A DNA stretch of 64,000 bases from an uncultured candidate division Zixibacteria bacterium (GTDB taxonomy: Bacteria > Zixibacteria > MSB-5A5 > GN15 > FEB-12): contig CAVTJJ010000003.1 in the NCBI GenBank assembly GCA_963735035.1, positions 672,001 to 736,000 of the forward strand, written 5' to 3'. Below are positions 24,921-43,536 of the stretch, piece by piece. Every line of letters starts with the position of its first letter. The stretch's first letter is position 1. Both the position numbers and the translations under genes were made by a program. Below the pieces are notes generated by a model. That model worked only from the letters and a program-made list of their open reading frames with translations. It had not been told where the DNA came from and made no database searches.

Positions 24921-24947
24921 CTCAATCATCCTCATTTCCGATTCCCG

Positions 24948-27900
24948 TTAGAAACTGACATCGACGTTCAAGCCGCGCTTGTTGCTGTACTCGACCGCTG
25001 CGTTCATACCGATACATCCCTTGGCGCCGGTCGGTAGCGCAAACACACAGGCGCCGAATATGCGGCAGTAGCATTTCCAGCAGATCGACCAGCAGCCCGC
25101 GTTGGGACATGAGCCGATCGTGCCTTCGAGACTGAAGCTGCCGTTCGCCCCGGCTGCGACTTCGTCATCGCGAACTGTCACGTTCGCCCCGAGAGCAAAC
25201 CGACCGCGCGCCTCGATCAGGTCGAGCGAGAATAGGCCGAGATCGAAGCCGATCCAGGCATAGGCGCTACCCGACATTTGGATCGACCCTGTCACCCCGT
25301 GGTTCCAGTCGATATCGAGTTTCGCGCGCTGCTCCAGATTCAGACCGAACTTGATGACATACCAGTTGGCGTTGTAACCAAACGAACTGCCCACTTCGAT
25401 ATAGATGCCGGTCATTAAACGGGTCTGGCCGTTGTATTGCCATTCCCAGTTGTTGGCGATGACGATTATGCCATCGGCCTTGATAATCTCAATTACGTTG
25501 AGATTGGCCCGGCCGTAGATGTACCAGTAGCGGCCGAACTGAACGCCCAGATCAAGCTGTGCCGATGCCTTCGCCGCCTTGAAGTCCATGGCGAAGACGA
25601 TCGAGCCGGTGACTCTCTCTTCCGGTATGTTGATTTCGAATGTGGCGCGACCGACATTCATGTCGCCGCCCACCTGGACGTTGGCATTGCCCAGGATGAT
25701 GACACCTTTGGGCGTCTTCTGGACTTCAACCAGGATGTCGAGCTTGATCCCCTTGTCCGCCTTGGCCGGCGCTACAATGCCACCGAGGCTGAACTTCCAC
25801 GTATCATCCTTGCGCCCGATGCCACCCGAGGCCTGGACAATTTCAGCCGGACCGATCGGGATTCTCGTGCCCGAGATGATCCGCACCCACCAGTCGGTCG
25901 AGCCACCATAGCGGAACTCCGCTCCAGCGCTGAAGACCGGCCTTACCGCCAACAGCCCCTTCCCCTCGAATACACCGTCGGCGTACGAAACGCGAATGTC
26001 CACACTGGCGGGACCCGCCACGAAACCGAGTGCTATCTCGCGGAACGTTACCGCTCCGTCGAAATAGAATCTTAGGTCGCTCGCCTGCACGTTCAGACCG
26101 TTGATGGCGCCGAACTTCACCCCGCCTGTCAAGCCGATAAACTGTTCCGTCCGGGACGAATCGTAACCGAGCTCAATTGACTCAAGTGTGAGGGTGACTA
26201 CATTCTTGAATGATACCGACTGATTGAACTCCAGCTTGCCGGTGAACCTGCCCTTTTCGGAGTAGCGAAGCTTCATCCCCACCGGCTTGTCGAGAGCGGT
26301 AACTGTGAGCTTGCCCGCGAAGGCGAAATACTTGGTGTGCTCGAGCGTCGTCGACTCGAAGTTCTCAGTGCCAAACTCGAGCGACTCGATCTGGAATTTC
26401 TGGCCGTGGACGTTAATCGTGCCGTTCTTTTCGTCGGCTGTGAGCGTCAGACTGAGGAACTCGCCCTCGGGAGAGATACGCAGATCCTTGAAACCGTACT
26501 CCCGGTTGTCCAGCGCGTTGAGCACGATTGCACCGCTCGCCCGGAACCCGGTCGCCTCCCAGCTCATCGAGCTGTCGACAACAGTAAAGACGCCGAATGG
26601 GATCTTGATCGCGGGCTCAGTCTTGAGGGTGACCGACTTAAGCGTGATCTCGCCGTCGGTGTCGCGACCGATCAGCATCTCCTCAAAACCAACCTTGAAC
26701 TTGGAGCCGAACTCGATTGATCCGAACAGATGCAGGCCGGCCGTATCAACACAACTCTTCGTGTAATCCAGGCCGAGCTTCACCGACTTGATCTGGACCT
26801 GGACTTCCTTGTTGGTCACCGTGATGCCGTACTTGCTCAGGCCACGGTTGACACCACCCGCCCAGAACGACGGCGCATACGACTTCGGAATCTTGAAATC
26901 TATGAACTTCGTCTCGGGAAGGATCTTCGAGATCGGGTCTTTGATCGTCACATCACCGCAGATGCGCCCGGCCTTGACCGAATCCACCCATTCCAGTCGC
27001 AGACCGCCGTCGAACGACATGGAGCCTTCGACCCCAAAGATGTTGATATCAACGGAGGACGTTGTCAGCTTGACCGTATCCGACACCGGACGATAATTTG
27101 ACCCCACTTCCAGGGCGGCGAAATTGAGCGACGTGCCCGGATTCTTCAGTTGGACGCCAAATGTGGCCGGAACATCGATCAGCGCTCCCCAGGCTTTGTT
27201 CTTTCCGTCCGATCCCGCTTGTATCGAATCGAGTGCCACTGCGAAACCGAAGAGCGAATCCATCGGCGACGGTTCCATTTCGATCGCCAGCCCGGTGACC
27301 TTCGCCCCCGCTTCGATACGCTTATCGTGTTTGAGTCGCGCCGTCTTAAACCCGGCTTTACGTGCTATCAGAGTGACCGACTCGCCGGTCGGGACGTTGC
27401 GAAGTTTGAAGACACCATTCAGATCGGTGGTCGCGGTTACTTTATCGTTGCCTTCAATCGTAATCGCTACTTTTTCAATCGGGAGGCCGCCCTCCTTCGC
27501 CTTGACCGTTCCCTCGATCCGCGCCGCCGGCGCCAACTCCACAATCACCGGCGCAGCGTTCAATCCCGGGTAAACGGTCACCTGGGACTCGACCGCCTCA
27601 TAGTCCTGAGCGTAGCTGTCATCCGACGGAGGCATCACCTTGAGCTTTTGCTGCCCGGTCGGAGCCTCGTCAAAATAGGCCACGCCGTCCGCATCGGTGG
27701 TAACCGGGACCGTGTCACCCAGTGTGACCTTCATGTCCTTCAGCCGCTTATCCGCGCTGCCCTTCTCTACGACCCGCACGAACACCTGCCCGATACTTCG
27801 AGCAATGGTCACGGATACCTTCAGCGTATCATTGGCGGTAACTACGACCGTCGTGTCGAGATCGGCGTAACCCAATTTGCGCAACTGCAGATGCACGCTG

Positions 27901-30647
27901 TCGGCAATCGCATCCGAGATCTGCAGCAAGCCATCTTTATTGGTGAAGCCGATAAGCGACGGTATCTCCGGCGATTTGACGCAAACGTCGCTGACACCCT
28001 TCTTATCCTTGTTCGTAACATTCAGCGAGATGAATCCCTTGGCGGCGCTGAGTTCCTCGTCGCGCTGGAACCGGTCACCGTAGTTGACGGCGAACTCCCC
28101 AGTGATTAGAGTAGCGCATCCGGTCTTGGAGAACTTAATGCGATAGACACCGGGCATGAGATTCGCGAAACTGTAGGCGCCGTCGCCCCCCGATTCCATC
28201 CATCCCGCACTGAGATTCCAGGCGGTCCGTCCGTCCGGAAGGGAGTCGATGCGATTCAACTGAACCCGCACACCGCTGAGCTGAGTGCCGGCGGAACTGG
28301 TTACGCGTCCAAAGATAATACCGCCTACCCGGGTCAGTCCGAAATTGACCGTATCAACTTCGTTCTCGGCGTCGATCCGATCCCCCTTTGTAGCCGAGCC
28401 GTAACCCTGGGCCTCGACCCAGACCAAATATCGCTCGGTTACTTGTTCGGGATCATTGATCGGAACATTCGCCAGAGCATAGTTGCCGGTCTGATCGGTC
28501 TGATACATATCGAGCGGCTCGCCGGCCGGCTTCTGATTGGCGGTATTACCCCAGGTCGTATCGACTACCGGAGCCGATCCTCCGCCCGCCGATTCACCCT
28601 CGCCGGAACCGAGCGAGCTCTTCGAATTGCCGGAGCCTCCACCGGACCCCTGATTGCCACTCCGCTGCCGTCGCGTGGCCGGATAGAGATAAACGCTCGC
28701 CCCCTCGACCGGCAGACTGTCGCACAACACACGGCCTACTATACTCCCCGCCTTCGGCTGCAGTAGATGCTCACCCGTATCAGTGGTCTCTCCCGCCGCG
28801 AGCGTAATCGACTCGGGTGACGTATACGGTCTGTAGCGAGCGTCGTTTACAACAATCTTATAGGAATAGCTGAGCGGCGCGGAAGTTGTTACCAGCATCG
28901 GGAGTCTGGCGTTCCCCACATTCATGTACTGGACTTTTACAGTTGCCGCTTTTTCCTGGCTGATCCCCAGAAGGCGGAAGAGTCCACCTCCGTCAGTGTA
29001 CGCGGTCTGTTGGCAGTCGACCGTGATCTCCTGTTGGACCGATCCAACGGTTGCACCCCATAGCTTGGTGGTGATCTGAACCGTTGCGGTGCGCGACAAC
29101 TGCACCAGCGCCCGAGGCACCGGCTTGTAGGTTCCCGCCACGATCGACTTGACCACACCGGTGATAACGCCGGCATTTGGCTTGATCAGGAAGATGTACT
29201 GGTCGATATCTCCCTGTTGGCGCTGATCCGGTCCGATGTCCACCGCCGGGAGATACGACGGCGATTTCTCGGCGCGCAGACTGAAATACGACGAATCCGC
29301 CGCCTGCAGGAATTCGAAACGACCCTCCGCGTCGGTTGTGGCAACCAGCACCTTGCGAGCGACCTCGACATATTGGAACTGGGCGCCGCCGGATGAATCC
29401 GACGTGCGCACTACGTCGACCGCATGGTAAGTCACCGGCGCGTTGGCTACCGGCTCATTACTGAAGAAATCTTTCAACACACCCGCGAGGCGACGGGTCC
29501 CCGGCGAAGCATAGGCAAGACGAACGGTCTTGTTTCTGACATCGCCGTCTTGATACTGCTCCCGCCCGCTCAGAAGCAGGGTGGTGTAATCCTTCCGGCT
29601 GATTTCGAGCGTGTAGAAGCTCTTGTTATAGGCGGAGTCGATTCGGAATGCCCCGGTCGGCCCGGTATAACAAACCGTTGAATCTTCGCCCGCCGTCCAG
29701 GTCGTATCTCCGGCGCTGATGCTTCGAGAGATAGGACGATACACCAGTCGTGCGGAATCCAGCGGGCGGCCGTTTTCGGCGTCAAGCACCTGTCCGGCCA
29801 GCGTGCGAAGTTCCACCGGTGTTGTTGTATCGGCGTCAAACCGGAATGACCAGATCTCACTGCGACCGTCATTGGTCGACGGCGGGTACCCCTTAGAATC
29901 CAATACCTGCACCTGCCAGGCGTACGTGCGATCCTTTACGAATGCCTGAGCATAAATCGGATACTGCAGGCTGGGGTTGCCAATATTCTTGTCTTCAAAT
30001 TGTGGCACATCGGCGGCCAGCGCCTGTGCGGCCGTCTGTCCGGGCAAGACCTCGGCCATCCGAAGATTGTAGTGCACTCCGAAACCTGCTGGAACTTGCA
30101 CCGGCGTCCACTGAAACACCGGAAACTTGCTTAGGACCGCCTCGCCATCGGTGGGATATACCAGATAGGGCGGATCGGGATAGACAATCGTGAATTCAGC
30201 ACACTTGTTGTCGGCCAGGATCGTTCCGTTCTCATCCTCGATCCGAAGACAAGCTTGATAGGTTCCTTCGGGCAGACGTCCCGTGCGAATTGCTATATCT
30301 TCAATGTCGTTGTTGTACTCAATCGAGGGGTCATCGATGATATCGCGGGTCGTGATATTGGACGACGGTCCCGGCGGAAAGTCGAGCATTTTGCTGTTGG
30401 CGCTGGCAATCTGCTGACTTCCTCGGCTGACTGTAAGGTATATGCGCACATGGACCGTATCAGCCAACGGGTTCACAATTAGGGCCTGACCAATACCGGC
30501 GTTGTTCTCCCAATCCGTGAGATATGGCGACGGGTAAGGATCGAATATGAGCGTGGCTTCCCAGCCCCCTTGGGCCAACGTGGAAGACGCTATAAGAAAT
30601 ATGAGCAGGCACAGAAAGAGTGCGCGCAACCTGCCAGCATTACTCAT
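24948..30647 (-). CDS. Giant secreted protein (1899 aa): TANFOR-like N-terminus, carboxypeptidase-regulatory/Cna-B-like repeats, long beta-rich C-terminal region
   Basis: Signal peptide; PYPSPYL...LPEGTYQAC...PPYLVYPTDG...FQWTP...YAWQVQV...GRSEIWSF; repeated GxV...GAxV...TDxxGxF; AGGAG RBS. Confidence 0.8.
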   Translation of the reverse strand: MSNAGRLRALFLCLLIFLIASSTLAQGGWEATLIFDPYPSPYLTDWENNAGIGQALIVNPLADTVHVRIYLTVSRGSQQIASANSKMLDFPPGPSSNITTRDIIDDPSIEYNNDIEDIAIRTGRLPEGTYQACLRIEDENGTILADNKCAEFTIVYPDPPYLVYPTDGEAVLSKFPVFQWTPVQVPAGFGVHYNLRMAEVLPGQTAAQALAADVPQFEDKNIGNPSLQYPIYAQAFVKDRTYAWQVQVLDSKGYPPSTNDGRSEIWSFRFDADTTTPVELRTLAGQVLDAENGRPLDSARLVYRPISRSISAGDTTWTAGEDSTVCYTGPTGAFRIDSAYNKSFYTLEISRKDYTTLLLSGREQYQDGDVRNKTVRLAYASPGTRRLAGVLKDFFSNEPVANAPVTYHAVDVVRTSDSSGGAQFQYVEVARKVLVATTDAEGRFEFLQAADSSYFSLRAEKSPSYLPAVDIGPDQRQQGDIDQYIFLIKPNAGVITGVVKSIVAGTYKPVPRALVQLSRTATVQITTKLWGATVGSVQQEITVDCQQTAYTDGGGLFRLLGISQEKAATVKVQYMNVGNARLPMLVTTSAPLSYSYKIVVNDARYRPYTSPESITLAAGETTDTGEHLLQPKAGSIVGRVLCDSLPVEGASVYLYPATRRQRSGNQGSGGGSGNSKSSLGSGEGESAGGGSAPVVDTTWGNTANQKPAGEPLDMYQTDQTGNYALANVPINDPEQVTERYLVWVEAQGYGSATKGDRIDAENEVDTVNFGLTRVGGIIFGRVTSSAGTQLSGVRVQLNRIDSLPDGRTAWNLSAGWMESGGDGAYSFANLMPGVYRIKFSKTGCATLITGEFAVNYGDRFQRDEELSAAKGFISLNVTNKDKKGVSDVCVKSPEIPSLIGFTNKDGLLQISDAIADSVHLQLRKLGYADLDTTVVVTANDTLKVSVTIARSIGQVFVRVVEKGSADKRLKDMKVTLGDTVPVTTDADGVAYFDEAPTGQQKLKVMPPSDDSYAQDYEAVESQVTVYPGLNAAPVIVELAPAARIEGTVKAKEGGLPIEKVAITIEGNDKVTATTDLNGVFKLRNVPTGESVTLIARKAGFKTARLKHDKRIEAGAKVTGLAIEMEPSPMDSLFGFAVALDSIQAGSDGKNKAWGALIDVPATFGVQLKNPGTSLNFAALEVGSNYRPVSDTVKLTTSSVDINIFGVEGSMSFDGGLRLEWVDSVKAGRICGDVTIKDPISKILPETKFIDFKIPKSYAPSFWAGGVNRGLSKYGITVTNKEVQVQIKSVKLGLDYTKSCVDTAGLHLFGSIEFGSKFKVGFEEMLIGRDTDGEITLKSVTLKTEPAIKIPFGVFTVVDSSMSWEATGFRASGAIVLNALDNREYGFKDLRISPEGEFLSLTLTADEKNGTINVHGQKFQIESLEFGTENFESTTLEHTKYFAFAGKLTVTALDKPVGMKLRYSEKGRFTGKLEFNQSVSFKNVVTLTLESIELGYDSSRTEQFIGLTGGVKFGAINGLNVQASDLRFYFDGAVTFREIALGFVAGPASVDIRVSYADGVFEGKGLLAVRPVFSAGAEFRYGGSTDWWVRIISGTRIPIGPAEIVQASGGIGRKDDTWKFSLGGIVAPAKADKGIKLDILVEVQKTPKGVIILGNANVQVGGDMNVGRATFEINIPEERVTGSIVFAMDFKAAKASAQLDLGVQFGRYWYIYGRANLNVIEIIKADGIIVIANNWEWQYNGQTRLMTGIYIEVGSSFGYNANWYVIKFGLNLEQRAKLDIDWNHGVTGSIQMSGSAYAWIGFDLGLFSLDLIEARGRFALGANVTVRDDEVAAGANGSFSLEGTIGSCPNAGCWSICWKCYCRIFGACVFALPTGAKGCIGMNAAVEYSNKRGLNVDVSF

Positions 30648-33087: not shown

Positions 33088-33396
33088 CTACTGTTTGATG
33101 CCCGGTCGGTAGGCGAACTCGGATGCTGCCATCGACGCCGGTACCGGGTAGAAGCCCGCCCCCGAGCAGAGCGGACAGGGATTGCGATCGACCTGTCTGA
33201 CTTCGATCAGGCCGGTCCCGTGGCAGGCGTAGCACGGGTTTTCAAGGGCGTCGAACCCTTTCCCGTCACAGTACATGCACTTGTGCGAATGGTCCGGTGT
33301 GATACACCGATTATCTACCCAGCCCCGGCCGCGGCACTCCGGGCAGACTTTTGGTTCGCCCTCGGGCGACGGCTTCTTTCTGGTCTCTGTCCCCAT
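33088..33396 (-). CDS. Stand-alone DnaJ-type zinc-finger protein
   Basis: Four CxxCxGxG repeats (CPECRGRG, CMYCDGKG, CYACHGTG, CPLCSGAG); GAGGTG RBS. Confidence 0.8.
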   Translation of the reverse strand: MGTETRKKPSPEGEPKVCPECRGRGWVDNRCITPDHSHKCMYCDGKGFDALENPCYACHGTGLIEVRQVDRNPCPLCSGAGFYPVPASMAASEFAYRPGIKQ

Positions 33397-33871
33397 ACTT
33401 CACCTCGCACGTTCTATTGCGAATCCATTCTTCGACTAAAGTAATCGCCGGCTCCACAGCCGCCGTAACGGCCGGGGTCATCTCTTCCGACAGCGTCTGC
33501 ACATCGGCCGCTTCCACGGCCAGGACGTCTATATTCTCCGGCATCTCATAACCAAGAAGCCTTCCAAGCCGGAGCGCCGTCGGCAGACTTATCTCGTGAC
33601 TTGATACCAACCCTCGACCGGGGGTCCAATATCCGTTCGGGAAGAAATGCAGTGTCCCTGGAATCGCTTTGCTCGTCAGCACTGTATCCACTACCAGCAC
33701 GGCCTCACGGCTGTGCATCAGATCCAGCAATGCGAACCCCGCCACCGAGGCGGTACAGACATCGGCGCGTTCGGTCACTTCCGGCCGAGTCAGACTCTCC
33801 CCCACCCGCAGACCAAAAGCGTCGTCGGTCAGCACATCATTTCCCAGACACAGGATCAGAATCGGTTTCAA
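33311..33871 (-). CDS. [NiFe]-hydrogenase maturation protease (HyaD/HycI family)
   Basis: LCLGNDVLTDDAFG, VLVVD and SSHEI motifs; TTG start overlaps the large-subunit stop; C-terminal tail overlaps the next gene. Confidence 0.9.
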   Translation of the reverse strand: MKPILILCLGNDVLTDDAFGLRVGESLTRPEVTERADVCTASVAGFALLDLMHSREAVLVVDTVLTSKAIPGTLHFFPNGYWTPGRGLVSSHEISLPTALRLGRLLGYEMPENIDVLAVEAADVQTLSEEMTPAVTAAVEPAITLVEEWIRNRTCEVKYGDRDQKEAVARGRTKSLPGVPRPGLGR

Positions 33872-35353
33872 CCGTCTCTCCGTTTCGAGTCAATAATTTC
33901 GCCGGTCGCAGCGTCGTGCACAATCAGCTCCAGCGGCATCTCGCCCGGCAGCGAATGCGTGGCGCATCCGAAACAGGGATCGTACGCCCTAAACGCCATC
34001 TCAATCCGGTTGAGAATGCCTTCGGTGAGCGTCGTACCCTTCTTGATCAAGCCTTCCGCGGCCCGTTTGATTGACATAGTAATCGGGGCATTGTTGTTCG
34101 TGGTACCGACGATCAGGTTGGCTTCGGTGATGATCCCTCGGTTGTCGGTCTTATAATGATGCGTCAGCGTTCCCCGAGGCGCTTCGACAATGCCAACCCC
34201 TTCGCCCACAATGCCTGTCGGCGGCTCGAAGATCTTGTCGGATGTGATTTCTTCATCCTGGGCCTGTTGCAGCACTGCCTCGCAGGCAAACACCAGCTCA
34301 ACTACCCTCGCCCAGTGCGTGGCCAGAGTAGCGTTGACCGGCGTTCTGCCGGTACGATCCCCGGTCAGCGTCTCATAGAACCGTTCGTACTCAGCTTGAG
34401 CCAGCGGCGTAGCCATACCGTCCGAGACGTTGAGCCGACTCAGCGGAGTCGCCTTGTAGACGCCTGAATCCTTGCCGTCGATAAATCCCTTCCACCCGAC
34501 CTTCTTCAGGAACGGATATTTCAGATAGCTATATGGCTCGACATGCTCGGCGACATATTCGAGATAATCTTTCGGCGCATATTTGGCGTGTTCGGTGCCG
34601 TCGGGCGCGGTCACCCGCACCATACCATCATAGAAAGTCACCTTGTTGTTGGCGTCCACCAGCCCCATGTTGTACGTCTTGTGGCAGAACAGGTCACCTA
34701 CTATCAGATTGACATAATGCTTTGTTCGCAAGAACCACGTCGTTGAGCACCTGAATCGTAAACTTGGCGAACTCAACCATATCCCGGCCGATCTTGATCA
34801 TCTCCTGCTGTTCTTCCTTGGTGACCCGTTTGGACATGCCTCCCGGAAGCGCCGTCACCGGATGTACTTTCTTGCCGCCGATGATCTCGATAATTCTCTG
34901 ACCGCGCGCTCTTTGAGCAATGACCTTCTTGCCGGCGTCGATGCCCACCTTGGCGATTACGCCAAGGATATTGCGCTCAAGCGGGGGCGCATCAGGACCG
35001 CAAACGAAATCCGGTCCGCCCAGAGCATAGAAATGGGTGGTATGATCGCCCGCATAGAATCCGTTATAGACCAGTTCGCGTAGCTTGCGCGCCGCCGATG
35101 GAATCGTCACTCCGTAAACCGCATCGGCCGCTTTCGCCGCCGCCATGTGGTGGGCATCGGGACAAACCCCACAAATGCGGGTCGTAATGCGACACATCTC
35201 CTCAACCGGCCGCCCAACACAGAACTTCTCGAACCCGCGCAGTTCCGGCACTTGGAAATAGCAGTTGGCCAGCGAGCCGTCGTCGTTGATGAATAGGTGT
35301 ATCTTGCCGTGGCCCTCGAGCCGGGTGATCGGATCAATCAGGACCGTTCTCAT
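33868..35353 (-). CDS. mvhA: Group 3c-like [NiFe]-hydrogenase large subunit, apparent +1 frameshift near 34715-34723
   Basis: IDPITRLEGH, L1 motif RICGVC, EAPRGTLTHHY, L2 motif RAYDPCFGCATH plus cleavable tail; halves join as VLANK-(H/A)YVNLI. Confidence 0.9.
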
Positions 35354-36321
35354 ACTTGTACTCTCCTGATCATTGATGCCGGAAGACTGAAACGATAGAA
35401 CGTGCCGACCGGATCGGCGATGGTCCCGATGATCTCGTCGATCTCCTCCGGATCGGTGGAATCAATCACGCTGGCCAGCGCCGAAACCATCTTCGCCCCC
35501 TGATCGCGGACGTTCACCGGAAGGCCATAGCAGCCCCGGCAGGGCACCCCGGCCGTTGAACATTTCGCACCGCAGCCTGCCCGAGTCGCCGGTCCCATGC
35601 AGACAATACCCTGTTCCAGCAGACATAGATTGGCGTCGATCCTGATCTCATGCGGCCGGTAGAATTTCTTGATCTTCTTGATATTCTTTTCGCGCAGACA
35701 TTCATCGCAACAAGTCTTGTCGGTCGCCCCGAGAATCGTCCCTTTCGGGGGCAGCGGTTTGCCGTTTTTCAGGATATCGATCACCGCTTCGACCACTGCC
35801 GCAATCTGATTCGACTGGGGCGGACAGCCGGGAATGATATAATCGACCTCGACCACCTGCGGCAGCGTCCGCACCGTATTCCACAAGTATGGGATGTGAA
35901 GCTCACCCTCGGGGACTTTGACAGTCGGTTGCGGTACTACTACGCTCCCCTTTTCCAAAGAGGGCGACTTCTTGTAGACATAATCCATAATCGCGTCTTT
36001 AGTCACCAGATTGGCCATCCCGGGAATACACCCCTCCGAGGCGCAACTGCCGAACGCACACAGCACCACCGACTTGGCCCGCATGAGCTTGGCCATCTCG
36101 TAGTTTTCGTCGCTGCGAATGGCCCCGTTGAACAAAGTCAGCGTGATTGACTTATCGTCCATCCGACGGATATCGTCATACTTCGTATCCATCGCACATG
36201 GCCAGAAGATCGGGTCGAAGAAATCCGCCACGGCCAGAATCTTCTCCTCGATATCCAGAATTGCGATATCACAACCGCCGCACGACGATGCCCAATAGAT
36301 TGCCAGTTTCGGTTTAGCCAT
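35350..36321 (-). CDS. mvhG: [NiFe]-hydrogenase small subunit
   Basis: WASSCGGC, AFGSCA, PGCPP, CCDEC, CLLEQGIVCMGPATRAGCGAKC, PCRGCYG; GGAG RBS before the ATG at 36321. Confidence 0.92.
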   Translation of the reverse strand: MAKPKLAIYWASSCGGCDIAILDIEEKILAVADFFDPIFWPCAMDTKYDDIRRMDDKSITLTLFNGAIRSDENYEMAKLMRAKSVVLCAFGSCASEGCIPGMANLVTKDAIMDYVYKKSPSLEKGSVVVPQPTVKVPEGELHIPYLWNTVRTLPQVVEVDYIIPGCPPQSNQIAAVVEAVIDILKNGKPLPPKGTILGATDKTCCDECLREKNIKKIKKFYRPHEIRIDANLCLLEQGIVCMGPATRAGCGAKCSTAGVPCRGCYGLPVNVRDQGAKMVSALASVIDSTDPEEIDEIIGTIADPVGTFYRFSLPASMIRRVQV

Positions 36322-36326
36322 GTTTG

Positions 36327-36809
36327 TCACTCCCTGCTCACAACCAAATCGTGGCTCGCGACTGAGGCGTGGCGCGTGTCCGCCTCGCCCGGCTCGAACG
36401 TCCAATCCTTCAGGTGAAGCGGCCCCAGTTCGCGAATCTGTTCGGTAAATTCGCCGATCACTTCCTGGAACCGCACTCCTTCGGACGCCGAGACCCATTC
36501 GAGGCGAAGCCGCCGCTTATCGACCCCCATCGCTTCTAGTAACTTGAGAGTCAGCGGCACGCGACGCATGCACTTGTAGTTGCCCTCGACATAATGGCAG
36601 TCGCCCGGATGACACCCGCAGATCAGGACCCCGTCGGCCCCTTTCTGGAACGCATCCAGCACGAATCCGGGATCGACCCGACCGCTGCACATCACCCGAA
36701 GGCTCAGGATATTGGGGGGATATTTAAGCCGCGCCGTGCCGGCGAGGTCGGCGCCAGTATAACTGCACCAATTGCAGAGGAAACCTATGATCTTGGGTTC
36801 GAAGCTCAT
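36327..36809 (-). CDS. mvhD: [2Fe-2S] adaptor subunit (MvhD/FlpD)
   Basis: GFLCNWCSYTGADLAG, RVMCSGRVD, GCHPGDCHY and WVSASEG motifs. Confidence 0.95.
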   Translation of the reverse strand: MSFEPKIIGFLCNWCSYTGADLAGTARLKYPPNILSLRVMCSGRVDPGFVLDAFQKGADGVLICGCHPGDCHYVEGNYKCMRRVPLTLKLLEAMGVDKRRLRLEWVSASEGVRFQEVIGEFTEQIRELGPLHLKDWTFEPGEADTRHASVASHDLVVSRE

Positions 36810-38564
36810 ACCAACATCCCCTCTATTTGGGCGTAAATTTGTTCGTCGGTGAAATGTCTCGCGACAATCGCACCGGCCGGGCAGGCGGCCACACAGGTGC
36901 CACAGGCTTTGCACAACGCCGAATTCACGACGCTGACTTTCTTATCGGTCAGGTAATCAATCGCATTGTACGGACACAGTTCATTGCATACGCGACAACC
37001 ACCGCAATATTCTTCCTGAATTGCCGCATATGCGGCATCCATCATTATTTCGCGCTGACAAAGTAACTTGAGCGCATGTGAGGCTGCCGCCCCTCCCTGA
37101 GCTACTGTATCCGGAATATCCTTAGCGCCCTGACAGGCTCCGGCCAGGAATACGCCATCGGTGGTTGTCGAAACCGGCCCAAGTTTCGGATGTGCCTCTA
37201 TAAACCAGCCGTCGGCGCCAACTGAAATGTTGAACTTCCTCGCCGTCTCCTTGGCGTCCTTGCGTGCTTCCAGTGCCGTGCAGAGGATCACCATGTCGAC
37301 CGGAATCTCGCGGAACTTGCCTATCAGCGTGTCCTCGCACATGACCAGCAAGTGGCCTTCCTCGCCCCGACGGAACCCCGACGGCACCACTTCGGCTGCT
37401 TTGCCGCGGATAAGATTCACATCTTCATCGAGAATGCGCTGATAGAACTCTTCGTACCCCTTGCCGAAACTGCGCACGTCGATATAGAGTTGGTAGACTT
37501 CCGCCGAGGTCTTTTCCTTCACCAGATGCGAGAACTTGAAAGCGTACATGCAGCAGACCCGACTGCAGTACTTGTGATAGTTTTGATCGCGGCTGCCGAT
37601 GCAGTGCAGAATGGCAATCGCCCGCGGCTCCTCGCCGTTTTCCAGCACGATCTTGCCCCCGGTCGGACCGGCGGCGTTGTTCATCATTTCGAATTCTTCG
37701 GCCGAGATGACATTCGGATACTTGCCGTAGCCGTACTGCTTCATCGGTGTGGGGTCAAAGCTGTCAAAGCCGGTGGCCATGACAACGACGCCAACATCGA
37801 ATTCCTCGAACTGATCCTGATCGTCGTAGTGAATACAGTCTTTCGGGCAGACTTTCGAGCAAACCTTGCACTCACCCGTATTGAAGTGTATGCACTTGTC
37901 CGGATCGATGAACGGGACGTTCGGCACGGCTTGGCGAAACGGCAGCGAAATCGCCGAGTTCGGCCCGAGCGATATCTCGCTGTGTACAATTGAACGCCCG
38001 TGAATTTCTTCCATCTTGATATGCCCGGTCGGACATACACTGGCGCAGGCGCCGCACAAGATACAGTCGTCGCTGCCAGCCTCCGAACGGCGTGGCGACT
38101 TCCCGATAAATGCCCCGGTTACTGAAAGCGAGCGCATGCGCGCCGACGACTTCGTCGCATACCCGCACGCACAGACCGCACAGAATACACGTGTCCTCAC
38201 CCGTGCCCCAGCGCGGCTTGTCGATTCCGAATTGCTCCGCCAACTGCTGCAACACCGGAACCGGCGCGCAGCGACTCATGAGCATTTCGAGATTGACCCG
38301 GCGAGCGTTTATCACACGCGGCGTCGAAGTGTGTATTTCCAGACCGTCCCAGACCGGATAGTTACAGGCCGTGACAATCTTGCTCCAACCTCGGCCGTCG
38401 CGCGCCTCGACCGCACAGATACGGCAGGCGGCGTACGGGGTCATATACGGATAGTGGCAGAGAGTCGGGATGTACGCTCCGAGCGCGCGGGCGCCGTCGA
38501 GAACAAACGCTCCTTCTTCCATCTCCACCGAATGTCCGTCGATCTTTACATTCACTTTGGCCAT
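36806..38564 (-). CDS. Fusion of a NuoG/HoxU/HydA-N-like Fe-S domain to the C-terminal half of HdrA, apparent +1 frameshift near 38083
   Basis: IPTLCH...CRIC...TAC [2Fe-2S]; CILCGLCVRVC; (shift TPF-EAGSDD) CILCGACASVCP; then HdrA sequence AISLPFRQAVP, VMATGF, CIGSRD...CSRVCCMYAFK, GVFLAGACQGAKDIPD and a C-terminal 2[4Fe-4S] domain. Confidence 0.85.
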
Positions 38565-40585
38565 CAAATCCTCCTACGCCACCGTGGCCGCTTCGCGCCT
38601 GACCGATGTCTCCCAGACCTGAACTGCTTTAGTCTTGAATGCCCGTCGCCTTCACCTCGTTTGACGCGCACGATGGCGTCGTGCTTGCAGATCTGGTAGC
38701 AGGCACCGCACTGGATGCATTTGTCCTGGATGATACTGTGCAGCTCTTTCGGCTTGCCTACAATTGCCTTAGTCGGGCACGGCTTCAAACATGCCACACA
38801 GCCGGTGCATTTCTCGGTAATGGCGTGCGACACTAATTCTTTGCAGACTCCGGCCGGACACCGCTTATCACGAATATGCGCCATGTACTCCTGTCGGAAA
38901 TACTTGACCGTCGACAGAATCGGGTTCGGCGCACTACCGCCCAACTGACAGAGACTGGTATCCACCAGTACCTGTCCTAGTTCTTCCAGCAGTGACAGAT
39001 CTTCGACCGTCCCTCGACCATCGCAGATCCGGGTCAGCACTTCCAGCATGGTCCGGATGCCTTCCCTGCAGGGCAGACACTTCCCGCAGCTTTCTTCCTG
39101 CAGGAAAGTGAGGAAATACCTGGCGACATCGACCATACATGAATCTTCGTCCATCACAATCATGCCGCCCGAACCCATCATCGAACCGACTTTGGTGAGC
39201 TCGTCGAAATCTACCGGCAGATCAAGCAGGCTAACCACTTCCTGATCATCGCGGATATCGCCGTGCGCCACCAGGCTGTCGTGAATCTTCTTCTCACCGG
39301 TTTCGACTATCAGCGTCCCCCCCGACGGCCCACCGGTTTGCACCGCCTTGAATCTCTTGGTGCCTCTCACACCGCCACCGATATCATATAGGATTTCGCG
39401 AAGTGTGATGCCCATTGGCACCTCGACCAGACCGGTGTTGTTGACCTTGCCGGTCAGGGCGAAGACCTTGGTTCCCTTTGAGCCCTCGGTTCCGATCCTG
39501 GCATAGGCTTTGGCCCCCATCTCGATGATGATTGGGACATTGGCCCAGGTCTCTACGTTATTCAGGTTGCTCGGCTTGTCCCACAAGCCGGATTCGACTG
39601 TGTGAATATACTTGGCGCGGGGTTCGCCGGTTTTCCCTTCGAGCGAGGCCATCAGCGCGGTCGATTCTCCGCACACAAACGCCCCGCCGCCACGCGAAAC
39701 CTCGATGTCGAAATCGAATCCCGTCCCGAGTATGTTCTTCCCCAGAAGGCCGCATTCACGGGCCGCGTCGATTGCGATCATCAGATTCTTGACCGCGAGA
39801 GGATACTCGTTGCGCACATAGACGAACCCCTCATTGCTGCCTATGGCATACGCACCGATAATCATCCCCTCGATAACAGAATGCGGATTGCCTTCGAGCA
39901 GGGAGCGATCCATGAACGCGCCGGGATCGCCTTCGTCCGCGTTGCAGATGACATATTTCGGCGTTCCTTTCGCCTTTCGACAGGTCGCCCATTTCTTGCC
40001 CGTGGGATATCCTCCACCCCCTCGACCACGCAGACCGGAGGTAGCTACTTCCTGAATGATCTCCTCAGGCTTCATCTTGAGCGCCTTAACCATGGGTCCG
40101 TATCCGCCCAGAGCGATGTAGTCACCTATCGAAGTCGGATCCATGTGACCGTTCTTCCCGAAAATCAAGCGCATCTGCTTTTTGTAGAACGGTATATCTG
40201 CTTCGTGAATGATCGTCTCTTTGGTAAGCGGATCGCTATAGAGCAGGCGGTTGACTATCTGCCCCGCTTTGATCGTCTGGTTGACTATCAGCTTGGCATC
40301 GGACGCTTTCACCCGCTGATAGAAGATGCCCTGCGGATGAACCACCACCAGCGGACCCCGCTCACAGAAACCGTGACACCCGGTTCGTTTTAGTTCGACT
40401 TCTTTATCCAGGTGACCCGCCACGAGTGCCTCGTGAAGGGCATTGCTTACCTTCTCGCAACCGCACGCCAAACATCCGGTCCCCGAGCAAACTGAAATAG
40501 TTGTTCTCTCTTCCTTACGGTGCTTGACGAGACTGGCTCGAAATTCTTCGAGCCCCGCAGCCGAGGTGATCCGTGTCATGTTCAT
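38564..40585 (-). CDS. NuoF/HoxF/HydB-like FMN/NADH diaphorase subunit with N-terminal [2Fe-2S] and C-terminal 2[4Fe-4S] domains
   Basis: CSGTGC...[62 protein letters not shown]...CIQCGAC. Confidence 0.93.
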
Positions 40586-41100
40586 GATTCCTCCTCACCC
40601 TCTGCAGCACCGGTCGCTTTGCCCTTCAACCCATCAAGCATGCGGTCGACTTTCGACACCGTCATGTTGCCGTAATAGACTTCATCAGCCGTCACCAGCG
40701 GCCCCAGGGCGCAGGCCCCGAGACAGTTCACCGTCTCCAGGCTGAATTCCCGGTCGTCGGTAGTCAGGCCGGGTTTGATGCCCAGCGACGTCTCCAGCCT
40801 GTCCACAATGACCGACGCCTGGCGAACGTGACAGGCCGTCCCGGTACAGACACAGATGTGATGCTTCCCCTTAGGGGTCAGACTGAATGAGCGATAGAAC
40901 GTGGCCACACCAAATACCTGGGCCACCGGCAGCTCCATCTTCCTGGCCACCAACTTGAGGGCTTCAATCGGCAGGTAGCGATAATGCTTTTGCACATCCT
41001 GAAGGATCATGATGAGGGCGGTTTGTTTCGCCTCATACTTGTTGACGATACTATCGATCGCTTCGGCCAGATCGTAGTGGCTCTGCACGGCCGTTGTCAC
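40582..41100 (-). CDS. NuoE/HoxE/HydC-like [2Fe-2S] subunit
   Basis: [16 protein letters not shown] and [10 protein letters not shown] motifs; GTG start behind a GGAGG RBS. Confidence 0.93.
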
Positions 41101-42071
41101 TTCGAGCCTCCTTCCACCGGCACCGACAGCGGCTCCGGCATCGGCTGCGCGCCGGTCAGCAGGGTCAAATCGTGGTCGGGACCCAGGACACCACGATGAC
41201 TCATGTCGAGCGCCTTCCCTTCTCTGACCACCTGCTTACCGAGAAACAATCTTCGCTCGCGGGGATACGGCTTGCTGGGACACGCCTCGTAACATGAGCC
41301 GCAACTGTTGCACAGGGTCGGATCGACATAGCGCGCCTTCTTACGAACCTTCACTTTGAAGTTGCCTATGTATCCCTTGACTTCCTCGACTTCCGCATAA
41401 GTCATCAATTTGATATGCGGATGCTTCCCCACCGATACCATCTTGGGAGTCAGAATACAGGCGGCGCAATCAAGCGTGGGAAAGGTCTTGTCGAATTGTG
41501 ACATGTGGCCGCCGATCGACGGCTCTCTCTCGACCAGCACCACTTCAAAACCGGCGTCGGCAATTTGCAGGGCCGCTTCGATTCCGGCGATACCGCCCCC
41601 GACAATCAATACCCGCTGGAAGATCGGTACCCGGCGCATTTCGAGCGCTTCGTGGAACTTCACCCGCGCCACCGCGCCGCGCAGCAGAGCGAGCGCTTTG
41701 GTGGTCGCCATCCGAGGATCGACTGTTACCCAACTTACCTGCTCGCGAATATTGGTCATCTCAAAGAAATACCGGTTCAGGCCGCCGTCCTCGACCGCTT
41801 TACGGAAAGTCGCTTCGTGCATGAGCGGACTGCACGCCGCCACCACTACCCGATCGAGTTTCAGTTCTCTGATATCCTTCTGAATGAGTTCCTGTCCGGG
41901 GTCCGAACACATGAATCGATAGTGACGCGCGATCACCACTCCCGGCGCTTCGGCTATGGTCTCTGCAACTTTGACCACATCAACCGTCTTGGCGATATTC
42001 GTCCCGCAGTGACAGATATACACTCCCACCCGGGGGGTACCATTGCCGGACGCATGTTCAAGCGAGCTCAT
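41097..42071 (-). CDS. hdrA: N-terminal half of heterodisulfide reductase subunit A
   Basis: VGVYICHCGTNIA, FMCSDPGQ, AACSP, GGGIAG FAD motif, DKTFPTLDCAACILTPKM; ends after CNSCGSCYEACP plus a ~60-aa tail. Confidence 0.92.
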   Translation of the reverse strand: MSSLEHASGNGTPRVGVYICHCGTNIAKTVDVVKVAETIAEAPGVVIARHYRFMCSDPGQELIQKDIRELKLDRVVVAACSPLMHEATFRKAVEDGGLNRYFFEMTNIREQVSWVTVDPRMATTKALALLRGAVARVKFHEALEMRRVPIFQRVLIVGGGIAGIEAALQIADAGFEVVLVEREPSIGGHMSQFDKTFPTLDCAACILTPKMVSVGKHPHIKLMTYAEVEEVKGYIGNFKVKVRKKARYVDPTLCNSCGSCYEACPSKPYPRERRLFLGKQVVREGKALDMSHRGVLGPDHDLTLLTGAQPMPEPLSVPVEGGSK

Positions 42072-42952
42072 ACCGCCACCCCTTCCGCCAGCGCCCGAAG
42101 TTTGACCGGATCTACCAGCAACTTATCCAGCCCCATCTCGTGCGATGAAATCCCCAGCGCCGCCCCTACCAGATGACTGAAATAGACCACCGGAATCTTG
42201 AAATCGCGCCCAAACGTCTTGCTGATCTTGCCCTGATAGGCTTCGAGATTCATCTGACAGAGCGGACAGGCGGTGGCAATTATCTCGGCGTTGGTGTCGT
42301 TGGCCGCCTGAAGCAGCTTCATGTTCAGATCGAGCGCGACGTCTTCCTGGGTGGTCATCAACATACCACCGCAGCAGCGTACTTTACAGGGGTAAGGGAC
42401 CACCTCGGCTCCCAGCGCGGTCAGCAGTCGATCCATCGTAACCGGTTCGTCGACATCGTCGAAATGCCCGTGCGGCCGGACGATCTGGCAGCCGTAGTAG
42501 GTCGCCACCCTGATGCCCGCCAGACTGTGCTTCATCCTGGCCTTGATCGCCGGAAGCCCGAAATCGTTTACCAGGATATCAAGCGGGTGCCGGACATCGA
42601 CCAGCGTGTCATACTTAAGTCCCGCCGCCGCCAGGGCTTCGTTGATCTTGGCGCGTTCTTTCGGATCCCACGCGATGTGGCGATTGGTCTTCCGTAGAAT
42701 CGTGTAACAACTGCTGCAAGGGGCGCATATCTGCATGCCCATGTTCTGCGCCAGTGCCAGATTGCGGGCGCTTATCGCGTAGCCCACAATCTTCTTGACC
42801 GACATGTACATGGTCGCGCCGCAGCAGTTCCAGTCCTCGATTTCGTGCAGGGCGATCCCGAGCGTCTTGAAAATAGCCCGGATCGACTTGTCGTACGGAC
42901 TGGCGGTGTGTTCCAGGCTACAGCCTGGATAGTATGCATATTGGAGCATCAT
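42068..42952 (-). CDS. hdrB: Heterodisulfide reductase subunit B (CCG domains)
   Basis: YYPGCSL, WNCCGA, PCSSC, YYGCQ, RCCGG and ACPLCQMNL motifs. Confidence 0.95.
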   Translation of the reverse strand: MMLQYAYYPGCSLEHTASPYDKSIRAIFKTLGIALHEIEDWNCCGATMYMSVKKIVGYAISARNLALAQNMGMQICAPCSSCYTILRKTNRHIAWDPKERAKINEALAAAGLKYDTLVDVRHPLDILVNDFGLPAIKARMKHSLAGIRVATYYGCQIVRPHGHFDDVDEPVTMDRLLTALGAEVVPYPCKVRCCGGMLMTTQEDVALDLNMKLLQAANDTNAEIIATACPLCQMNLEAYQGKISKTFGRDFKIPVVYFSHLVGAALGISSHEMGLDKLLVDPVKLRALAEGVAV

Positions 42953-43536
42953 CCTTCTCCAAATTCATTGGCCTTATTGATGATGGCCCGTATGTCTTTT
43001 ATTCTTCTTAACTTTCTTGGAATCAAGCCCATCCGCCCCCGGCGAATCATCGACCACCCCATACCGGCGTTCGAAATAAGACGACTGATTTCGGTCCGCG
43101 CGAAATACCGGATGCCCAACCCCAACTCATAGTTGCGGCCGTACCTATAGACGTTATCCACAAAAGCTCCCGACAGTACGTGCACGAGGAAGCGGCCCGG
43201 ATACATCTTCTTCGCCATCGCAATCCGCTTCAGAGCGTACATGGTGTCAGTCACCCGGATGTCCGCGGGACAGCGGACCGTACATGAATAGCATGATGCG
43301 CAGAGCCAGATGGCTCGGCTTTGCAGTATCTCTTCAATATGGCCGGCCCGAAACATGGCCACGATCTGACGAGGGGTCAGGTCCATGGCATAGGACACCG
43401 GACAGGTCCCCGTACAGGTTCCGCACTGCAGACAGCGCTTAATCTTGAACCCCTCCGGAAAACTTCCGACCTGTTCCCAAAAGGCCGCCCGAAGCTCGGC
43501 CTCCTTTTTAGGGAGAAATTCGATCTTCCCTATCAT
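42949..43536 (-). CDS. hdrC: Heterodisulfide reductase subunit C (2x[4Fe-4S])
   Basis: CLQCGTCTGTCP and IWLCASCYSCTVRCP; AGGAG RBS. Confidence 0.93.
   Translation of the reverse strand: MIGKIEFLPKKEAELRAAFWEQVGSFPEGFKIKRCLQCGTCTGTCPVSYAMDLTPRQIVAMFRAGHIEEILQSRAIWLCASCYSCTVRCPADIRVTDTMYALKRIAMAKKMYPGRFLVHVLSGAFVDNVYRYGRNYELGLGIRYFARTEISRLISNAGMGWSMIRRGRMGLIPRKLRRIKDIRAIINKANEFGEG

Follow-up and report, generated by a model that had tools for sequence, protein, structure and literature searches.

A divided HdrA and a Bfu-type NAD(H)/ferredoxin cassette in a hydrogenase-heterodisulfide reductase locus of an uncultured Zixibacteria bacterium

Gene order of the locus

The window, a stretch of 64,000 nucleotides from an uncultured Zixibacteria bacterium (contig CAVTJJ010000003.1), holds ten genes on its minus strand in the order hdrC, hdrB, hdrA-N, nuoE-like, nuoF-like, NuoG-like::HdrA-C, mvhD, mvhG, mvhA and maturation protease. 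The hdrC gene (42949..43536) encodes a 4Fe-4S dicluster subunit of 195 aa (Pfam Fer4_8/Fer4_17), and its position is kept in relatives. HdrB (42068..42952, 294 aa) contains two CCG domains (PF02754, two stretches, 1.8e-28) and is the sole two-CCG HdrB found in the genome. The adjoining hdrA-N gene (41097..42071, 324 aa) encodes, by comparison with 5ODC chain A, an N-terminal four-cysteine domain, the FAD-binding GxGxxG motif, the first cysteine motif of the inserted ferredoxin domain and a conserved tail of 59 aa.

The hydrogenase genes lie downstream of the fusion gene: mvhD (36327..36809; PF02662, 8e-54), mvhG for the small subunit of a [NiFe] hydrogenase (35350..36321; PF01058, 3e-20; start MAKPKL..), mvhA for the large subunit (33868..35353; two ORFs as read, PF00374 on both) and the gene for the maturation protease (33311..33871; TIGR00072, 8.1e-28). 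The start of MvhD (MSFEPK..) was set by comparison with the relative G027, in which the MvhG homolog has 323 aa. MvhD and both hydrogenase subunits adjoin the hdr genes (PF02662, PF01058, PF00374; synteny in relatives), as is characteristic of group 3c [NiFe] hydrogenases (Mvh). A promoter scan gave 9 sites, compared with 7.0 ± 2.8 in shuffled sequences.

HdrA is divided between two genes

HdrA-N corresponds to residues 4-268 of 5ODC chain A (E = 4.9e-99) and carries both the N-terminal [4Fe-4S] site and the GxGxxG motif. Residues Cys18, Cys20, Cys53 and Cys78, together with Gly156, Gly158 and Gly161, are invariant in 43 sequences, and Pfam places FAD/NAD folds at 153-246. The chain contains CNSCGSCYEACP and stops 59 aa after this motif; positions in the tail are conserved too. 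Its stop codon, TGA, shares bases with the GTG start of the nuoE-like gene (GTGA), which has a GGAGG 6 nt upstream. The earlier note had read this end of the locus in the same way: HdrA ending soon after the first cysteine motif of the inserted ferredoxin domain, its stop lying over the start of a nuoE-like gene with a ribosome-binding site of its own, and a nuoF-like gene following in the gap. The DNA itself, comparison with 5ODC_A and Pfam (40582-41100 and 38564-40585 for the two genes in the gap) bear out these points.

The remainder of HdrA is located in another gene, 2.5 kb downstream of hdrA-N, which likely starts at the ATG at 38564. The 5' part of this fusion gene (38080..38564) encodes a BfuA-like N-domain with a [2Fe-2S] site and a first four-cysteine motif (PF13510, 2.8e-14). 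Its 3' part (36806..38079), assigned through a relative's match to 5ODC_A, encodes the second BfuA cysteine motif, a linker, the second half of the inserted ferredoxin domain, the remainder of the FAD domain and the C-terminal ferredoxin domain; the HdrA-C part in the window is 93% identical to that of the nearest relative, L040. Residues 165-584 of the relative's fusion protein match 5ODC_A 244-650 (E = 3e-108) and comprise the second half of the FAD domain, a cysteine cluster (HCIGSRD, CSRVCCMY) and a C-terminal 2x[4Fe-4S] domain, with Cys321, Cys333, Cys337, Cys338 and Cys520-Cys561 invariant. A CxxCxxCxxxCP motif flanks the break on both sides, as CNSCGSCYEACP in HdrA-N and as CILCGACASVCP in the fusion protein, where it forms the second motif of the ferredoxin-like domain of BfuA.

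Neither in the window nor in its relatives are the FAD domain and the inserted ferredoxin domain found in a single polypeptide. The split of hdrA is genuine and no artefact, because both halves are conserved in length (314-334 aa at 68-90% identity for HdrA-N and 579-604 aa for the fusion protein, among the best 120 clusters), all Fe-S cysteines are invariant in both, and the gene order is repeated across loci. The view that the break after the first cysteine motif is not an indel therefore stands. Although the assembly does hold indels, we reject the idea that a one-chain HdrA was split here by mis-assembly or indel: two complete genes occupy the gap, the short HdrA-N and the fusion protein recur in the best 120 clusters of each search, and the layout is present in independent assemblies labelled as many phyla.

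Frame breaks in this assembly

The single NuoG-like::HdrA-C gene described earlier exists in three relatives, as one frame of 585 aa. In the window it is read as two overlapping ORFs in different frames, a NuoG-like one (37872-38567), genuine up to ...ATPFGG, and an HdrA-C one (36806-38200), genuine from ...SDDCILCGAC. DNA alignment with the three relatives identifies exactly one extra base, at about 38079 (frame break at 38075..38085); a doubt raised earlier about the sequence near 38083 had pointed to the right place. The last ~25 codons of the nuoF-like gene are likewise out of frame owing to two extra bases at about 38644-38645, its true stop being a conserved TAG at 38576-38574, and mvhA has one extra base at about 34717, relatives being intact at 493-494 aa (both by DNA alignment). 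A programmed frameshift in the fusion gene is out, as the three relatives share the codons without the extra base. Selenocysteine or an alternative genetic code is also out as the cause of the breaks, since the ORF pairs are in different frames and there is no in-frame TGA.

Across the genome, 8 of 68 queries are frame-split; they map to 7 places, of which three fall within 11 kb of contig C6 (C6:299-311 kb). Because splits recur in this way (7 places, 68 genes), assembly error is the most probable cause of the window's frame breaks. Those in nuoF, mvhA and the fusion gene might instead reflect real mutations in an operon that is decaying in this genome. This is improbable, but it keeps some weight because the locus has three indel sites within some 10 kb, a somewhat higher density than in the rest of the genome, where a frame-split gene is met about every 13 kb; in addition, rpoB and rpoC are intact. 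On the other hand, stop codons are absent and all cysteines are kept, and the HdrA-C part is close in sequence to that of L040. The gene cusA, also in the window, is frame-broken too, and this, together with the cluster at C6:299-311 kb, is the pattern of regional consensus errors. The operon, moreover, holds the sole HdrA found in the genome, no second one having been returned by the HdrA query used.

A Bfu-type module occupies the gap

The gap in hdrA is occupied by the nuoE-like gene (40582..41100, 172 aa, [2Fe-2S]; PF01257, 1.9e-50) and the nuoF-like gene (38564..40585, 673 aa as read). According to Schut et al. 2022, a BfuBC core consists of a BfuB with 51K FMN, SLBB, NADH 4Fe-4S and 4Fe-4S ferredoxin domains and a NuoE-like BfuC. 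The nuoE-like protein has the BfuC domain (PF01257). The nuoF-like protein comprises an N-terminal [2Fe-2S], an FMN, an NADH_4Fe-4S and a C-terminal 2x[4Fe-4S] domain, and Pfam finds the whole BfuB set in it (PF01512, PF10531, PF10589, a Fer4 dicluster and an N-terminal PF01257). Its top solved matches are all Bfu enzymes (E 1e-181 to 1e-229), led by 9mqx_B (1.3e-229) and 7t2r_B (1.4e-223) and including 8a6t_B, whereas complex I Nqo1 is matched at 1e-105. Residues 27-640 align end-to-end with residues 5-596 of 7t2r_B.

The BfuA-like part of the fusion protein (residues 4-192 in the relative) matches 9mqx_A 5-194 (3.2e-34). The [2Fe-2S] ligands Cys36, Cys47, Cys50 and Cys67 and the two four-cysteine motifs are invariant, and the aligned fusion proteins show no His-Cys3 motif between them. 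This is the type 2 arrangement of the BfuA N-domain, with clusters A1, A2 and A4 and without A3, which is also the cluster set of WorA (PMC12318220). These sequence matches identify the cassette as an NAD/ferredoxin core of the Bfu (HydBC) type and the N-terminal part of the fusion protein as a WorA-like BfuA. Of the earlier description as a NuoEFG/HydCBA-like diaphorase, the likeness to HydCBA is retained, while a plain NuoEFG or Hox diaphorase disagrees with the Pfam and PDB matches.

Two-chain model of HdrA

We modelled HdrA-N with the fusion protein of G027 and FAD, leaving out BfuBC, HdrBC and Mvh. The ipSAE was 0.82 in three runs, compared with 0.00 for the best of three controls; at least 85% of the contacts were common to the runs, and the pLDDT of the partners was at least 87. 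Among solved complexes, 116 of 157 attain the ipSAE pass mark, as do 2 of 215 mismatched pairs; these figures apply here only roughly, and the high score may owe much to the solved one-chain HdrA.

The contacts of highest confidence pair the GxGxxG strand (HdrA-N 152-156) with the ATGF strand (fusion 257-264). HdrA-N 231-288, with the first cysteine motif, contacts fusion 201-246, with the second. The predicted assembly fits a rebuilt HdrA flavin fold and supports the earlier proposal that the FAD site and the inserted ferredoxin domain are each put together from two polypeptides. HdrA-N contacts the BfuA ferredoxin-like domain as well, so the pairing of the cysteine motifs may be swapped.

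Distribution and origin of the layout

Of 80 loci kept, 28 carry the fusion gene, under about a dozen phylum labels. The order hdrA-N, nuoE, nuoF, fusion is found in 22 of these 28 and is interrupted by contig ends in 4 more. The earlier note had suggested searching other genomes for this synteny, and the split-and-fuse layout is indeed widespread in uncultured microbes. A literature search of limited reach returned no description of it, and it is apparently undescribed. In three loci (L072, L104, L109) HdrA-N is fused in frame to NuoE, which suggests that the C-terminus of HdrA-N lies beside BfuC. A search of representatives gave HdrA-N only in 41 of the 150 best, many of which are fragments.

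In a tree of the HdrA-C part, type III HdrA forms are interleaved with split forms (L077 confirmed by Pfam). An AU test on this part rejected a single split clade (delta lnL 271.5, p-AU 4e-75; 29 split and 40 one-chain rows, with 14 partial or ambiguous and 3 long-branch rows dropped beforehand), although it was run after a quick tree had been viewed, and recombination could yield an equal result. The split layout may have more than one origin, at an HdrA hotspot. The BfuA/HdrA-C junction is, however, identically placed in all 28 fusion proteins, which keeps a single origin plausible.

The metagenome-assembled genomes bearing the layout come from sediment and subsurface under many phylum labels, and their loci are annotated merely as MvhADG/HdrABC. 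Metabolic models therefore probably misassign the links between the H2, NADH and ferredoxin pools in these organisms.

Proposed mechanism

[quoted passage not shown] Here the gene structure itself joins them, with the cassette inside hdrA and one end of it fused, or both ends in some lineages. The layout shows where the modules touch and provides a defined set of ten genes to express and to study by cryo-EM.

We propose, with a probability of roughly 55%, that the products of the ten genes assemble into a single soluble complex, made up of an Mvh-type [NiFe] hydrogenase, HdrBC, a two-chain HdrA and an NAD(H)/ferredoxin core of the Bfu type. The proposal builds on the order of the genes, on their domain identities and conservation and on the confident two-chain model, from which we infer the remainder. 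The FAD fold would be rebuilt by HdrA-N together with the HdrA-C part of the fusion protein; the two chains would also share the inserted ferredoxin domain, HdrA-N supplying the first cysteine motif and the fusion protein the second. In one-chain HdrA this domain is the ferredoxin site, according to the accessible part of PMC12054007. The BfuA-like part, with A1, A2 and A4, is covalently continuous with it. Because BfuA is fused to the domain by which electrons leave for ferredoxin, the low-potential electron of HdrA would pass via BfuA to BfuBC and not to free ferredoxin. In the H2-oxidizing direction, electron flow from H2 to a disulfide via HdrBC would likely drive BfuBC to reduce NAD+ and ferredoxin, a coupling that would help at low H2; the net reaction may also go in reverse. 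A gene of the DsrC/TusE family, sought as a candidate disulfide partner, is present in the genome (96.9% complete), in which DsrA was not found.

More tentatively, the HdrA FAD and the FMN/Fe-S core of BfuBC, two mechanistically different bifurcating devices, may act in series in one enzyme, a suggestion to which we give somewhat less than even odds. The low-potential electron of HdrA would then go into Bfu by the port normally used for mid-potential electrons. If true, one H2-oxidizing complex would couple four redox partners (H2, a disulfide, NAD and ferredoxin), and potentials or H2 levels beyond the reach of either module alone may become accessible.

In the same complex, the NuoEF-like pair could be a plain, non-bifurcating NAD(H) diaphorase, with NAD+ replacing ferredoxin as the acceptor of the low-potential branch of HdrA, as has been suggested for the GltD insertion of type III HdrA. 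NuoF homologs of HydB architecture exist in non-bifurcating enzymes, according to excerpts of PMC5861303. In type III HdrA, whose forms sit among the split ones in our tree, the equivalent site is occupied by an NAD(P)H module that re-uses the inserted ferredoxin (PMC12054007). We nevertheless consider a plain diaphorase unlikely, since the nuoF-like protein retains every extra domain of the Bfu type (N-terminal [2Fe-2S], C-terminal 2x[4Fe-4S]) and matches solved Bfu enzymes far better than complex I Nqo1.

It is also quite unlikely that the complex runs chiefly the other way, with BfuBC confurcating NADH and reduced ferredoxin and sending electrons of ~-400 mV into HdrA, which would bifurcate them to a disulfide and, via Mvh, to H+, H2 being released. 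Such an order was proposed by Schut et al. 2022 for BamGHI and the HdrA module (PMC9304861, in part), and excerpts of PMC5861303 describe Bfu and Nfn enzymes as reversible. However, Bfu enters HdrA at the inserted ferredoxin domain, which is the low-potential arm and not the site of mid-potential donors. Wagner et al. are said to have described, in 2017, a separate HdrA site for donors of that kind, such as MvhD.

Comparison with known systems

The proposed complex shares with MvhAGD-HdrABC of hydrogenotrophic methanogens (5ODC, 8RVU; group 3c) all six subunit types in one operon. Its HdrA halves align to residues 4-268 and 244-650 of 5ODC_A with the cofactor-binding cysteines retained. In contrast to the one-chain HdrA of methanogens, which feeds free ferredoxin or a polyferredoxin, HdrA consists of two chains here, with a BfuCBA cassette and a BfuA::HdrA-C fusion, and the hosts are bacteria without known CoM-S-S-CoB.

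[quoted passage not shown] The same part groups the BfuB of Bam with Wor-Bfu in clade 45; the BfuA of Wor-Bfu carries only A1, A2 and A4. Unlike at our locus, the Bam genes are separate and intact, HdrA is unsplit, the active site is a tungsten-pterin and a hydrogenase is lacking (ibid.).

Type III HdrA, or HdrL, has an NAD(P)H-binding module at the equivalent HdrA site, a GltD-like domain lying in-chain next to the inserted ferredoxin domain, and likewise occurs in operons with mvhDGA (L077, L092 and L117; Pfam for L077). It is a single polypeptide with one FAD/NAD(P)H domain and, in the accessible part of PMC12054007, is without FMN, BfuBC core, gene break or BfuA fusion. The HdrA described here has no in-chain GltD-like domain, and Pfam detects neither Fer4_20 nor a second Pyr_redox_2 in either half, unlike in L077. 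The earlier note had judged HdrL, with its in-chain insertion, and BamE/BamGHI, with separate intact genes, to be related but different.

Among solved structures, the nuoF-like protein is matched best by WorABCSL (9MQX, PMC12318220) and NiFe-HydABCSL (7T2R/7T30), and WorA, which lacks cluster A3 like the BfuA-like part here, is the best match of that part. In these two enzymes BfuA recruits its partner through a helix or domain at its C-terminus, whereas here BfuA runs covalently into one half of HdrA.

Organization of the operon

Ten closely packed genes run along the minus strand from 43536 to 33311 (Pfam and NCBIfam): hdrC (42949-43536), hdrB with two CCG domains (42068-42952), a short N-terminal hdrA termed hdrA-N (41097-42071; 324 aa), a nuoE-like gene (40582-41100), a nuoF-like gene (38564-40585), a fusion gene encoding a NuoG-like part followed by the C-terminal part of HdrA (38564 to 36806), mvhD (36327-36809), mvhG (35350-36321), mvhA (33868-35353) and a gene for a hydrogenase maturation protease (33311-33871). 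The end of the protease gene is overlapped by a small DnaJ-type zinc-finger ORF (33088-33396, minus strand; 102 aa). The strongest terminator-like hairpin of the region lies 3' of this ORF (33024-32999) and is likely the end of the operon. Three large consecutive ORFs are located on the same strand at 24948-30647 (1899 aa), 22848-24935 (695 aa) and 21110-22435 (441 aa); the first and third have no NCBIfam match and the second has a weak and partial one.

HdrA-N matches residues 4-268 of the solved HdrA (PDB 5ODC; E 4.9e-99), and its C-terminus lies 59 residues past CNSCGSCYEACP. The break and gene overlap are as described in the earlier note: the TGA of hdrA-N and the GTG of the nuoE-like gene share the bases GTGA, with a GGAGG six bases upstream.

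Identity of the inserted module

The nuoF-like protein contains an N-terminal thioredoxin-like [2Fe-2S] domain, FMN, SLBB and NADH 4Fe-4S domains, and a C-terminal 2x[4Fe-4S] domain (Pfam), which agrees with the definition by domains that the main text of Schut et al. 2022 (PMC9304861) gives for the BfuBC core of HydABC-type NAD/ferredoxin (Bfu) modules. The top matches among solved structures all belong to Bfu-type enzymes, namely WorB (9mqx_B, 1.3e-229), NiFe-HydB (7t2r_B, 1.4e-223, matched end to end), HydB (8a6t, 7q4v, 7p5h) and NfnB (9n5u). The match to complex I Nqo1 is weaker (1.8e-104) and covers the core alone. The N-terminal part of the fusion matches WorA (9mqx_A 5-194, 3.2e-34) and has a [2Fe-2S] site and two 4-Cys motifs, between which no His-Cys3 motif occurs in an alignment of 43 sequences. 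It is predicted to hold clusters A1, A2 and A4 without A3, like WorA as described in the available text of PMC12318220. The Bfu-type matches, the domain set and the WorA-like N-terminal part together identify the diaphorase cassette of the earlier note, described there as NuoEFG/HydCBA-like, as a Bfu module, with BfuC, BfuB and a BfuA-like part in gene order, distinct from a plain NuoEFG or Hox diaphorase.

Relative to WorB (9mqx_B), the nuoF-like protein carries an insertion of ~25 residues (~426-450) in the SLBB/NADH 4Fe-4S interval, also found in the relatives G027 and G030. Some split-HdrA operons encode a nuoF-like protein of ~1030-1050 aa (loci L047, 4897-7983; L057; L072). At L047 a C-terminal GltD-like part (Fer4_20 and Pyr_redox_2) replaces the ferredoxin domain, which suggests a putative NADPH-linked version.

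Frame breaks in the assembly

The gene 3' of the nuoF-like gene is read in the window as two ORFs in different frames, not as one open frame. The NuoG-like part extends through ...ATPFGG (37872-38567), and the other frame runs from ...SDDCILCGAC onward into HdrA-C (36806-38200). DNA alignment with three relatives locates exactly one surplus base, at ~38079, and in G027 and G010 the gene is a single frame of 585 aa. The NuoG-like::HdrA-C gene that the earlier note read here therefore exists intact in relatives and is frame-broken by one extra base in this assembly. One extra base also breaks mvhA (~34717), and two at ~38644-38645 put the last ~25 codons of the nuoF-like gene out of frame, so that its conserved TAG (38576-38574) is not read.

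To assess the breaks, 68 ORFs with a minimum length of 200 aa, drawn from 21 stretches of the complete G027 genome, were searched by tblastn against the window's genome (26,176 aa aligned). Two-frame matches were obtained for 8 queries at 7 distinct places. Two of these places fall in this operon; of the other five, three lie within 299-311 kb of contig C6. The genes rpoB and rpoC are intact, no stop codon or lost cysteine is seen, and HdrA-C shares 93% identity with its nearest relative. The breaks are probably regional assembly errors and not signs of decay. A CusA/CzcA-type RND pump gene (52889-56391, plus strand) is likewise read as two ORFs, 52889-54229 (profile 1-424 of 1051) and 54226-56391, and is a further frame break in the window.

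Conservation and origin of the split

The best 120 clusters found with HdrA-N are all 314-334 aa long (identity 68-90%, coverage 92-100%), and those found with the intact G027 fusion are 579-604 aa (65-86%, 99-100%). All Fe-S cysteines are invariant in alignments of 43 sequences of each protein. They comprise the N-terminal cluster, the CxxC and the first ferredoxin motif in HdrA-N; the [2Fe-2S] site and two 4-Cys motifs in the BfuA part of the fusion; and the second inserted-ferredoxin motif, HCIGSRD/CSRVCCMY and the C-terminal dicluster in its HdrA-C part. The HdrA-N tail conserves, among others, P266, P268, R271 and the stretch GP.HDLT.LTGAQPMPE.

Among the best 80 loci kept from 622 relatives (one genome per species), 28 encode the BfuA-like part and HdrA-C in one ORF. 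A search of these genomes for the order hdrA-N, nuoE, nuoF, fusion, as the earlier note had suggested, recovered it at 22 of the 28; four others are cut by contig ends, at L047 the end of hdrA-N lies 3.7 kb upstream, and L097 has none. The junction is alike in all 28: the second BfuA motif ...CPTG, a linker of ~20-25 residues, LGP..AI..P..QAVP and the second ferredoxin motif. In their record titles the loci are assigned to Zixibacteria, Ignavibacteria, GN15, Calditrichaeota, Bryobacterales, Aminicenantes, Armatimonadetes, Verrucomicrobiota, Anaerolineae, Desulfobacterales, Planctomycetaceae and an archaeon, some of these MAG labels being possibly wrong. At three loci (L072, L109 and, by Pfam, L104) HdrA-N is fused in frame to NuoE via ~20 residues, so that the cassette is joined to hdrA at both ends; the C-terminus of HdrA-N would then adjoin BfuC in the assembled enzyme. 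In a set of 40 genomes related to that of the window, the short HdrA-N form is whole in three, in two frames in one and on two contigs in one, and is absent from both genomes of the same genus; its distribution is patchy. Judged from these comparisons of sequence, the split of HdrA is a real, widespread and conserved design.

A quick tree of HdrA-C (86 rows) does not unite the split forms in one clade but interleaves them with one-chain HdrA and ~1150-aa forms, one of which (L077) has a GltD-like insertion (Pfam). An AU test on the HdrA-C part, made after this tree had been inspected and with some rows dropped beforehand, rejected a single clade (p-AU 4e-75). Either the layout arose repeatedly at a hotspot for insertion, or the split halves recombined with ordinary hdrA; the uniform junction in 28 of 28 loci does not decide between the two.

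Several loci depart from this layout. On one public contig of an Ignavibacteria-labelled MAG (L014, 6524-8989, and L039), the fusion continues in frame into mid-MvhG (821-828 aa) without mvhD, which is a deletion or mis-join in that assembly. In a 'delta proteobacterium' MAG (L073, 7126-9784), hdrA-N is followed directly by a frame-split BfuA-like::HdrA-C gene without nuoE or nuoF between, a variant with the BfuA domain only. The Desulfobacterota-labelled L067, L068, L072 and L073 lack mvhG and mvhA; their downstream genes are mvhD, one for a double-HdrA protein (~1160-1255 aa) and hdrC, in some cases with hdrB. At the Chloroflexota loci L099, L059 and L065, hdrA consists of two adjacent stop-to-stop ORFs (~200-220 and ~455-460 aa), an arrangement found in three tandem copies at L099, with a break point different from that of hdrA-N and possibly due to an in-frame TGA (selenocysteine). 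Single TGAs also occur inside HdrA matches among the 40 relatives.

Predicted assembly from two chains

HMMER aligns CILCGACA.VCP of the fusion to the first inserted-ferredoxin motif of HdrA, which is thus present twice: HdrA-N carries one copy at its end, and the second BfuA motif is the other. Four motifs would suffice for four [4Fe-4S] clusters, distributed over two ferredoxin-like folds. Most naturally, BfuA motifs 1 and 2 would form one pair and the motifs of HdrA-N and HdrA-C the other, in trans; the swapped arrangement is also possible.

G027 HdrA-N and fusion were modelled with their own alignments and FAD, without BfuBC, HdrBC and Mvh. The ipSAE was 0.82 in all three runs, compared with 0.00 for the best of three controls, with 559-589 contacts, at least 85% common to the runs, and partner pLDDT of at least 87. 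In calibration, 116 of 157 solved complexes but also 2 of 215 mismatched pairs attain the tool's mark; these figures apply only roughly here. The model is most confident for contacts of HdrA-N 152-156, the strand before GGGIAG, with fusion 257-264 (...IMATGF), predicting one Rossmann sheet from two chains; HdrA-N 231-288 contacts fusion 201-246 and also 123-176. The model thereby fits the earlier proposal that FAD site and inserted ferredoxin assemble from two polypeptides. Because one-chain HdrA has been solved, the score may reflect likeness to that structure and not binding.

Proposed mechanism

The link of BfuA to the inserted ferredoxin domain leads us to propose an electron path into BfuBC. 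H2 would be oxidized at MvhA and the electrons passed to the HdrA FAD. From there, one electron would travel via HdrC and HdrB to a disulfide, and the other via the inserted ferredoxin clusters and A4-A2-A1 to BfuBC, which would reduce NAD+ and ferredoxin. The overall reaction could be 4 H2 + 2 RSSR' + NAD+ + 2 Fd(ox) -> 4 thiols + NADH + 2 Fd(red). Sediments are low in H2, which makes the reduction of NAD+, and above all of ferredoxin, by H2 an uphill reaction; the disulfide would drive it. The window's genome (96.9% complete) contains a DsrC/TusE-family gene; DsrA was not found in it, nor was a second HdrA with the query used. Alternatively, this Mvh-Hdr-Bfu enzyme might run in reverse, as the main text of PMC9304861 proposes for Bam-Bfu, or the Bfu-type module might be a non-bifurcating diaphorase, as NuoF homologs of the same build can be according to the available text of PMC5861303.

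Comparison with known systems

Mvh-Hdr and Bfu are known systems, and their combination in one complex has already been conceived (Bam-Bfu). The apparently new features are an hdrA cut inside its inserted ferredoxin with a bfuCBA cassette in the gap and BfuA fused to HdrA-C, the occasional fusion of BfuC to HdrA-N, and the predicted union of this topology with a [NiFe] hydrogenase and HdrBC. No description of the layout was found in the literature searched, which included the main text of Schut et al. 2022, where neither a disulfide nor an Hdr-Mvh class appears. The available text of Castelle 2013 (PMC3903129) names the Zixibacteria cluster simply MvhADG/HdrABC. The layout, which the earlier note did not recognise, is not among the HdrA classes in the available text of PMC12054007, whose scope is methane-metabolising archaea and which distinguishes only types I, Ia, II and III. 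According to the same text, the inserted ferredoxin domain of one-chain HdrA serves ferredoxin reduction, and type III HdrA carries an inserted GltD domain that is presumed to block this site and re-use it for NAD(P)H. In the present system it is BfuA that is covalently joined to the inserted ferredoxin domain.
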